This document shows, in pieces, positions 61,693 through 64,000 of a DNA stretch of 64,000 bases. A model generated the notes under the pieces. It did no database searches and was not told the DNA's origin. It saw nothing but the letters and a program-made list of their open reading frames with translations. The stretch's first letter is position 1. Each line of letters opens with the position of its first letter. The position numbers were made by a program, and so were the translations under genes. This stretch comes from Escherichia coli (lineage in GTDB: Bacteria > Pseudomonadota > Gammaproteobacteria > Enterobacterales > Enterobacteriaceae). The stretch lies in the NCBI RefSeq assembly GCF_003334255.1, contig NZ_QOWU01000010.1; one strand, written 5' to 3'.

Positions 61693-63096
61693 ATGAATAC
61701 AGTACGCAGCGAAAAAGATTCGATGGGGGCGATTGATGTCCCGGCAGATAAGCTGTGGGGCGCACAAACTCAACGCTCGCTGGAGCATTTCCGCATTTCG
61801 ACGGAGAAAATGCCCACCTCACTGATTCATGCGCTGGCGCTAACCAAGCGTGCAGCGGCAAAAGTTAATGAAGATTTAGGCTTGTTGTCTGAAGAGAAAG
61901 CGAGCGCCATTCGTCAGGCGGCGGATGAAGTACTGGCAGGACAGCATGACGACGAATTCCCGCTGGCTATCTGGCAGACCGGCTCCGGCACGCAAAGTAA
62001 CATGAACATGAACGAAGTGCTGGCTAACCGGGCCAGTGAATTACTCGGCGGTGTGCGCGGGATGGAACGTAAAGTTCACCCTAACGACGACGTGAACAAA
62101 AGCCAAAGTTCCAACGATGTCTTTCCGACGGCGATGCACGTTGCGGCGCTGCTGGCGCTGCGCAAGCAACTCATTCCTCAGCTTAAAACCCTGACACAGA
62201 CACTGAATGAGAAATCCCGTGCTTTTGCCGATATCGTCAAAATTGGTCGTACTCACTTGCAGGATGCCACGCCGTTAACGCTGGGGCAGGAGATTTCCGG
62301 CTGGGTAGCGATGCTCGAGCATAATCTCAAACATATCGAATACAGCCTGCCTCACGTAGCGGAACTGGCTCTTGGCGGTACAGCGGTGGGTACTGGACTA
62401 AATACCCATCCGGAGTATGCGCGTCGCGTAGCAGATGAACTGGCAGTCATTACCTGTGCACCGTTTGTTACCGCGCCGAACAAATTTGAAGCGCTGGCGA
62501 CCTGTGATGCCCTGGTTCAGGCGCACGGCGCGTTGAAAGGGTTGGCTGCGTCACTGATGAAAATCGCCAATGATGTCCGCTGGCTGGCCTCTGGCCCGCG
62601 CTGCGGAATTGGTGAAATCTCAATCCCGGAAAATGAGCCGGGCAGCTCAATCATGCCGGGGAAAGTGAACCCAACACAGTGTGAGGCATTAACCATGCTC
62701 TGCTGTCAGGTGATGGGGAACGACGTGGCGATCAACATGGGGGGCGCTTCCGGTAACTTTGAACTGAACGTCTTCCGTCCAATGGTGATCCACAATTTCC
62801 TGCAATCGGTGCGCTTGCTGGCAGATGGCATGGAAAGTTTTAACAAACACTGCGCAGTGGGTATTGAACCGAATCGTGAGCGAATCAATCAATTACTCAA
62901 TGAATCGCTGATGCTGGTGACTGCGCTTAACACCCACATTGGTTATGACAAAGCCGCCGAGATCGCCAAAAAAGCGCATAAAGAAGGGCTGACCTTAAAA
63001 GCTGCGGCCCTTGCGCTGGGGTATCTTAGCGAAGCCGAGTTTGACAGCTGGGTACGGCCAGAACAGATGGTCGGCAGTATGAAAGCCGGGCGTTAA
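61693..63096 (+). CDS. fumC: Fumarate hydratase class II, 467 aa
   Basis: [17 protein letters not shown] signature (GSxxMxxKxN) in translation. Confidence 0.97.
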
Positions 63097-64000
63097 TCTG
63101 CAACATACAGGTGCAGCCGTGGAATGATCAAACGAAGCGGCTGCGCCTGAGGTTTATAACGGTGCTGCACATTGTCGGCATCGTAATTTAACAACTCACC
63201 AACGTCCGGCACGCCCGCGCCATTATCCCGATTAATCAGTGCAATCAGTGGTGTAGGGCAGGCGTGTTGGACTTGTTTTTGATCTCCTTTGTACCAGACG
63301 CGGGCAATCGGCTGCACCTTCACCGGACGTTTGATTTTTAACTTCGCGTTCTGTGGCAGGGCAGCGATATCCTGATACTCTCGCTCCAGTTTTCTTTGCC
63401 ACTCCTCGCGCGTCCACGGTGCGACACTGCGTGGTGATTTCAGGCTTTTTTCCAGCTGTGCCAGGACTTCATCACGATGTAAATTCTTAATGATATGTTT
63501 ATTAGCCCAACCAAAGCGTAAAGTGGCGGGGTCGTGCAGAACGGTGAGCGTGCGGTAAGCATTAAGGGTGATCAGCCCCGGCAAATGACGATGCACCCAT
63601 TCAAAACGTGCCGCGGTGGGGAGTTCTGATTCAACCGTGACGATATGCTCGAACGTGGTCTTGAGTTTATTGATGTGCTGAATATGACTGACCAACGCTG
63701 CTTGCGAAAGGTTATCGACCTGGTAACACAACACGCCAGGCAGACGGACAGCGGCCTTGCTGCTGCGATTTTCGGACTGTTGTTGAATAAATAAATGGCG
63801 GAAATGACGCAACGCAAGCGACTGCGCGTCGTTGCCGAGATGTTGTTTTACCTCAATACGATTAAGCGGATTATGCTCATCCTCTTTTTTTACCTCCGGC
63901 AAAGAGAACACGCGGGCAACCAATAGCTTGTGTTGCTCAAGATGAGCGGCAAATATAGCCAGCTCTTGTTCCATCTGGCGAAAGGTAGTGTTGAGTCGGT
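63093..64000 (-). CDS. tus: Tus, replication terminus site-binding protein; partial, N-terminal ~16 codons beyond window end
   Basis: Translation ...[53 protein letters not shown]...; converges on fumC with 4-bp overlap. Confidence 0.93.

Follow-up and report, generated by a model that had tools for sequence, protein, structure and literature searches.

The Tus protein of Escherichia coli is a monomer when bound to its 23-bp Ter sites, and stops replication forks arriving from one side only; the RTP protein of Bacillus subtilis has an unrelated fold, that of a dimeric winged helix, and the Ter sequences it recognises are unrelated too. For E. coli, the arrest of forks has been linked to a lock that Tus and Ter form at C(6) (PMC4499146), and for K-12/KRX it has been shown that Tus binds, that forks are arrested and that tus is repressed (PMC8707476, PMC10331603). 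One of the sites, TerB, is described as lying in or overlapping the tus promoter, where it has an autoregulatory role (PMC8707476, PMC8347550), at a distance of 10 bp from tus (PMC8707476); the autoregulation goes back to Roecklein et al. 1991, on which we rely as it is cited in PMC8707476 and PMC8347550. Here we analysed a 64,000-nt stretch of an E. coli genome (assembly GCF_003334255.1, contig NZ_QOWU01000010.1), hereafter the window, whose right edge falls inside tus.

The reading frame at that edge, on the minus strand, runs without interruption from its TAA stop (the complement of 63093–63095) to the last base of the window, and its 301 complete codons give a translation that ends ...LHLYVAD. 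This translation is 100% identical to residues 9–309 of K-12 Tus, bearing out the original prediction that tus is cut by the end of the window; the truncated coding sequence (63093–64000, minus strand) holds codons 9–309, the stop codon and 2 nt of codon 8. The fragment matched the solved structures 1ECR, 2EWJ, 2I05 and 2I06 (7e-203), with query residues 1–301 aligned to chain residues 9–309. A profile match run on full-length K-12 Tus, identical to the window's protein over residues 9–309, covered all of Pfam PF05472 (‘Ter’, DNA replication terminus site-binding protein; 1.9e-136, model positions 1–296 of 296). By megablast, 62000–64000 was present once in 5425 of the 5426 complete E. coli genomes, annotated as fumC and tus, and the RefSeq annotation of the segment is likewise tus. 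On the strength of the structure match, the PF05472 match and the megablast hits with their annotation, the gene at the right edge is E. coli tus, represented by the 3′ 98% of its coding sequence. Because the protein equals K-12 Tus, residues I79, F140, H144, G149, L150 and R198 are all present at those positions; the first five are, we assume, the residues of the cytosine pocket (Mulcair et al. 2006). PMC8707476 mentions R198, taken here as a clamp residue.

The part of tus that lies beyond the edge is short. In RefSeq and K-12 (NZ_CP032667.1) the coding sequence is 930 nt long and 908 nt of it are inside the window, so that 22 nt are missing: the MARYDLV codons and the G of the Asp8 codon, with window base 64000 corresponding to base 23 of the K-12 coding sequence. 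The missing part therefore amounts to 7 codons and 1 base, and not to the roughly 16 codons that had been estimated. To continue past 64000 we used K-12, strain B-1109 (the best 25-kb match to the window) and assembly GCA_012755075.1, and all coordinates beyond the edge are extrapolated from these. In all three, the tus strand continues past the edge as ...TGGTCAAGTCACCACGACTGTGCTATAAAATAAGTATGTTGTAACTAAAGTGGTTAATATTATGGCGCGTTACGATCTCGTAGAC, and the canonical TerB 23-mer, AATAAGTATGTTGTAACTAAAGT, is found just outside the window at 64033–64055, that is, 33–55 bases past the edge, on the minus strand, the same strand as tus; read on the plus strand it is GTCTACGAGATCGTAACGCGCCATAATATTAACCACTTTAGTTACAACATACTTATT. 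TerB has the G-C(6) pair and the invariant core GTTGTAACTA. Its position 23 is separated from the tus ATG (64022–64020, minus strand) by a 10-nt spacer, GGTTAATATT (64023–64032), and the rstB stop lies at 64098. The spacer read here agrees with the published 10 bp, and the TerB template oligonucleotide printed in PMC4499146 equals the native sequence and the flanks that we found. Thus, extending the sequence and searching it for Ter located the site where it had been expected, beyond the edge and immediately upstream of tus, within about 100 bp of the tus start.

The 23-mer that the original prediction had quoted for this search, AATTAGTATGTTGTAACTAAAGT, is presumably TerA. It agrees with TerB at 22 of 23 positions, including G6 and the whole core, the difference being at position 4 (T in the TerA-type 23-mer, A in TerB). 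TerA itself is about 340 kb distant, on the far side of the trap, has the opposite polarity and is not the tus-adjacent site.

Position 1 of TerB is also the last base of a TATAAA −10 hexamer, an overlap of one base; the hexamer is preceded by TGC and has TGGTCA 18 nt upstream. TGGTCA-18-TATAAA looks like the tus promoter, with TGC as a predicted extended −10. A consensus promoter scan of the tus region called no promoter at TerB; the rule demands T at the sixth −10 position, which TATAAA does not have, and the scan is thus blind to this promoter.

At the non-permissive face, DnaB would unwind Ter positions 1–5, and the cytosine of G-C(6) would then flip into a pocket of Tus; this ‘Tus-Ter lock’, or mousetrap, would act together with a dynamic-clamp effect. 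Given its overlap with the TATAAA −10 and its distance of 10 nt from the tus ATG, TerB would have a dual role, as a fork barrier that backs up TerC for clockwise forks and as an operator through which Tus would repress its own promoter. The identity of the gene, its truncation and overlap, the place, orientation and conservation of TerB in relatives and the Ter-free window are read from the sequence; for the lock mechanism, autoregulation and fork pausing at TerB we draw on the literature or infer. We regard it as nearly certain that tus is truncated here and that an intact TerB follows beyond the edge, where it would serve both as a fork barrier and as the tus operator.

The two roles need not weigh equally. 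[quoted passage not shown] Paused forks in wild-type cells are nevertheless most abundant at terC and then at terB (PMC10331603), and an operator reading complements the dual role rather than competing with it. We consider a mainly regulatory TerB possible but the less likely balance, and continue with TerB as both barrier and operator.

The orientation of TerB determines which forks it would stop. On the minus strand the site reads 5′-AATAAG...AAGT-3′ from 64055 down to 64033, so that Ter position 1, at the non-permissive end, is the base farthest from the window and position 23 is on the side of tus. The non-permissive end comprises positions 1–6 and contains the C(6) that the Tus pocket takes up (PMC4499146). 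With that end at 64055, forks coming from the rstB side would stop before entering the window, and a fork travelling from left to right through fumC and tus would meet the permissive face and pass. GC skew on the plus strand adds up to a net positive value (+0.39; 12 of 16 4-kb bins above zero), as is expected where this strand is the leading one for a fork moving from left to right. On the K-12 map we take this left-to-right fork to be the anticlockwise one and TerB to block the clockwise one. TerB is thus predicted, from its orientation, to block forks leaving the terminus region and to let oriC-derived forks pass. Taken together, TerB orientation and left-to-right replication place the window just outside the TerC/TerB side of the fork trap; the locus fixes the chromosomal position and orientation of the window and explains the absence of a Ter site inside it.

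That absence held up in three scans, whose matches were all at chance level, consistent with the earlier failure to find a Ter-like 23-mer in the window. The previously quoted 23-mer gave 0 matches in the whole 64 kb at up to 3 mismatches. The degenerate core GNNNGTTGTAACNA had no exact match in the window; at up to 2 mismatches it matched 59 times, where shuffles gave 51 ± 8. The invariant core GTTGTAACTA was likewise absent from the entire 64 kb. A scan with ten Ter sequences, TerA–J (the TerB entry being the 23-mer read here), found nothing in the window closer than 2 mismatches over positions 6–19 and 8 over all 23; of 20 shuffles, 13 reached the same minimum of 2 mismatches and another went lower. 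The two places at this minimum, 1481–1503 (plus strand), which lacks G6, and 30210–30188 (minus strand), each with 2 mismatches in positions 6–19 and 8 of 23 overall, were rejected as Ter sites.

TerB is highly conserved at this location. Both the 121-bp rstB–tus junction and a 46-mer centred on TerB were found in 5424 of the 5426 complete E. coli genomes, the 46-mer in 2330 exact copies. In an alignment of seven diverse strains, picked across the range of identity, G6, Ter positions 8–23, the spacer, the ATG and the first 22 nt of tus were invariant, and variation was confined to Ter positions 1, 2 and 7 and to a one-base insertion near positions 5–6 in strain E686. This extent of variation matches the ‘1-2 SNPs/23 bp’ published for terB (PMC10331603). 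The insertion in E686 (AATAAAGTATG...) displaces the bases that precede G6; the annotation of this strain also gives rstB a frameshift.

The strain from which the window comes is close to K-12 without being K-12. Exact collinearity with K-12 MG1655 is excluded by an insertion sequence at the left end, a 73-bp indel and about 12 single-base differences in the 52 kb of 12222–64000, among them S499C in FumA (61398), CGA>CTA (Arg>Leu) in ydgJ (44703) and a synonymous Leu change in tus (63816). The left end (1–590) is the 3′ part of an IS3-family element that interrupts ydhS; its transposase ORF ends ...GNDDLAA, its terminal repeat ...CCAGGAAACCCGGGGCGGTTCA ends at 590, and we take it to be IS629/IS3411-like. 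Copies of this element at 99.8% identity are common in E. coli, and the junction with ydhS is covered by 0 of the 5426 complete genomes, the best match covering 1–598. The indel falls in a REP/BIME-like region between ydhP and sodB (about 12162–12222), which is 73 bp shorter than in K-12 MG1655 and has flanks that are 99.98% identical.

None of the 5426 complete E. coli genomes matched the right-hand 2 kb or 25 kb of the window perfectly. Searching for the exact FumA S499C protein led us to GCA_012755075.1 (contig AATETV010000009.1), whose sequence differs from the final 8097 nt of the window only at 61632 and includes the two marker SNPs (61398 and 63816); these two variants are common to natural assemblies such as this one, and mark the source as a wild strain of K-12-like type outside the complete-genome set. 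A further assembly with FumA S499C, GCA_000768405.1, has a 4-bp deletion in a AATAAATAAAT run at about 63786–63793, inside tus, which is called there as 213 aa only, with TerB upstream intact; the deletion is either a natural tus frameshift mutation or an assembly error.

In such a background, the rstB–tus region of the source strain might itself differ, through an insertion sequence, a deletion or a mutated TerB, so that no functional Ter site would follow the window. The insertion in ydhS that all 5426 complete genomes lack, the single-base differences from K-12, the deletion in tus of the related GCA_000768405.1 and the 2 of 5426 genomes in which the TerB 46-mer is missing all point to some room for this. 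Against it, a canonical TerB is intact in the assembly that shares both marker SNPs and agrees with the window at all but 1 of 8097 nt, the rstB–tus region is present in 5424 of the 5426 genomes, and even GCA_000768405.1 retains TerB. We therefore think it very improbable that the site is lost or impaired, and hold to an intact TerB beyond the edge.

Nor is there any realistic prospect that the 293-aa ORF listed at 63093–63974, with its ATG start, is a complete, shorter tus whose promoter and operator would lie at 63975–64000: the frame stays open from 63974 to the window edge, the RLNTTFRQ upstream of the ATG corresponds to Tus residues 9–16 in K-12 and in the solved structures (1ECR), the annotated E. 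coli tus genes that we examined have a length of 930 nt without exception, 63975–64000 is without any Ter-like sequence, and alignment to full-length Tus rules out a protein starting at Met17. The in-frame ATG at 63972–63974 (minus strand), preceded by an open frame (RLNTTFRQ-M), is Met17 of Tus and no start codon. The start that the ORF list places at 63974 is an artefact of the truncation, and the earlier figure of about 16 codons was probably counted from this ATG.

At its other end, tus converges on fumC (class II fumarate hydratase; 61693–63096, plus strand), a 467-aa ORF annotated in RefSeq whose product is identical to K-12 FumC over its 467 aa. The two coding sequences share the TTAA palindrome at 63093–63096, the 4-bp convergent overlap that had been noted before: the fumC stop TAA is 63094–63096, the tus stop TAA is the complement of 63093–63095, and the stops have 2 bp in common. 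There is no intergenic DNA between the two genes, and each transcript would consequently have to end within the opposite gene. Just 3′ of the fumC stop, in the last codons of tus, RNA folding of the plus strand gave a hairpin with a 13-bp GC-rich stem and a 16-nt loop (63108–63149; centroid −25.6 kcal/mol, z = −2.08 against shuffles), followed by a weak U tract. This is the only terminator-like structure at the junction, and is a possible, predicted terminator or 3′-end stabiliser of the fumC transcript. A consensus terminator scan of the tus region called none between fumC and tus, missing this hairpin because of its weak U tract. Downstream of tus on the minus strand, 63000–63100 folded into structure no better than chance (z = +0.69). 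Expression of fumC rises under oxidative stress and when iron is limiting. A coupling of tus expression to fumC, whether through transcriptional interference or through antisense overlap, would be a second control added to the TerB autoregulation, and strikes us as unlikely.

Elsewhere in the window, Rfam matches at the gathering score identified the sRNA STnc550 adjoining purR (10365–10755, plus strand; 396 bits), two tandem tRNA genes (1619–1692 and 1700–1773, minus strand), which are tRNA-Val in the K-12 annotation, and an HPnc0260 ‘antisense RNA’ that overlaps the tRNA region (1492–1654, plus strand; 112 bits). Self-comparison revealed an imperfect tandem repeat in rsxC (minus strand) at 39186–39707, with a 96-bp period and copies that are 87–91% identical.

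The tus/TerB locus, among the most thoroughly studied in bacterial replication termination, is textbook biology, already known, and nothing in it is novel. The closest described system is K-12 tus (b1610), which has the same protein over residues 9–309, the same gene order, rstB-TerB-tus/fumC-fumA, and the same 4-bp convergent TTAA overlap with fumC; the sole difference between the K-12 gene and that of the window is the synonymous SNP at 63816 (Leu, CTT versus CTG). In the nearest relatives of the window, the TerB 23-mer, the 10-nt spacer and their orientation are identical to those of the K-12 locus. B. subtilis RTP–Ter is a functional analogue of Tus–Ter, being also a polar fork barrier, and its rtp gene is autoregulated, to go by an entry in the reference list of PMC10331603; unlike RTP, the protein encoded in the window matches only the Pfam Tus family, PF05472.
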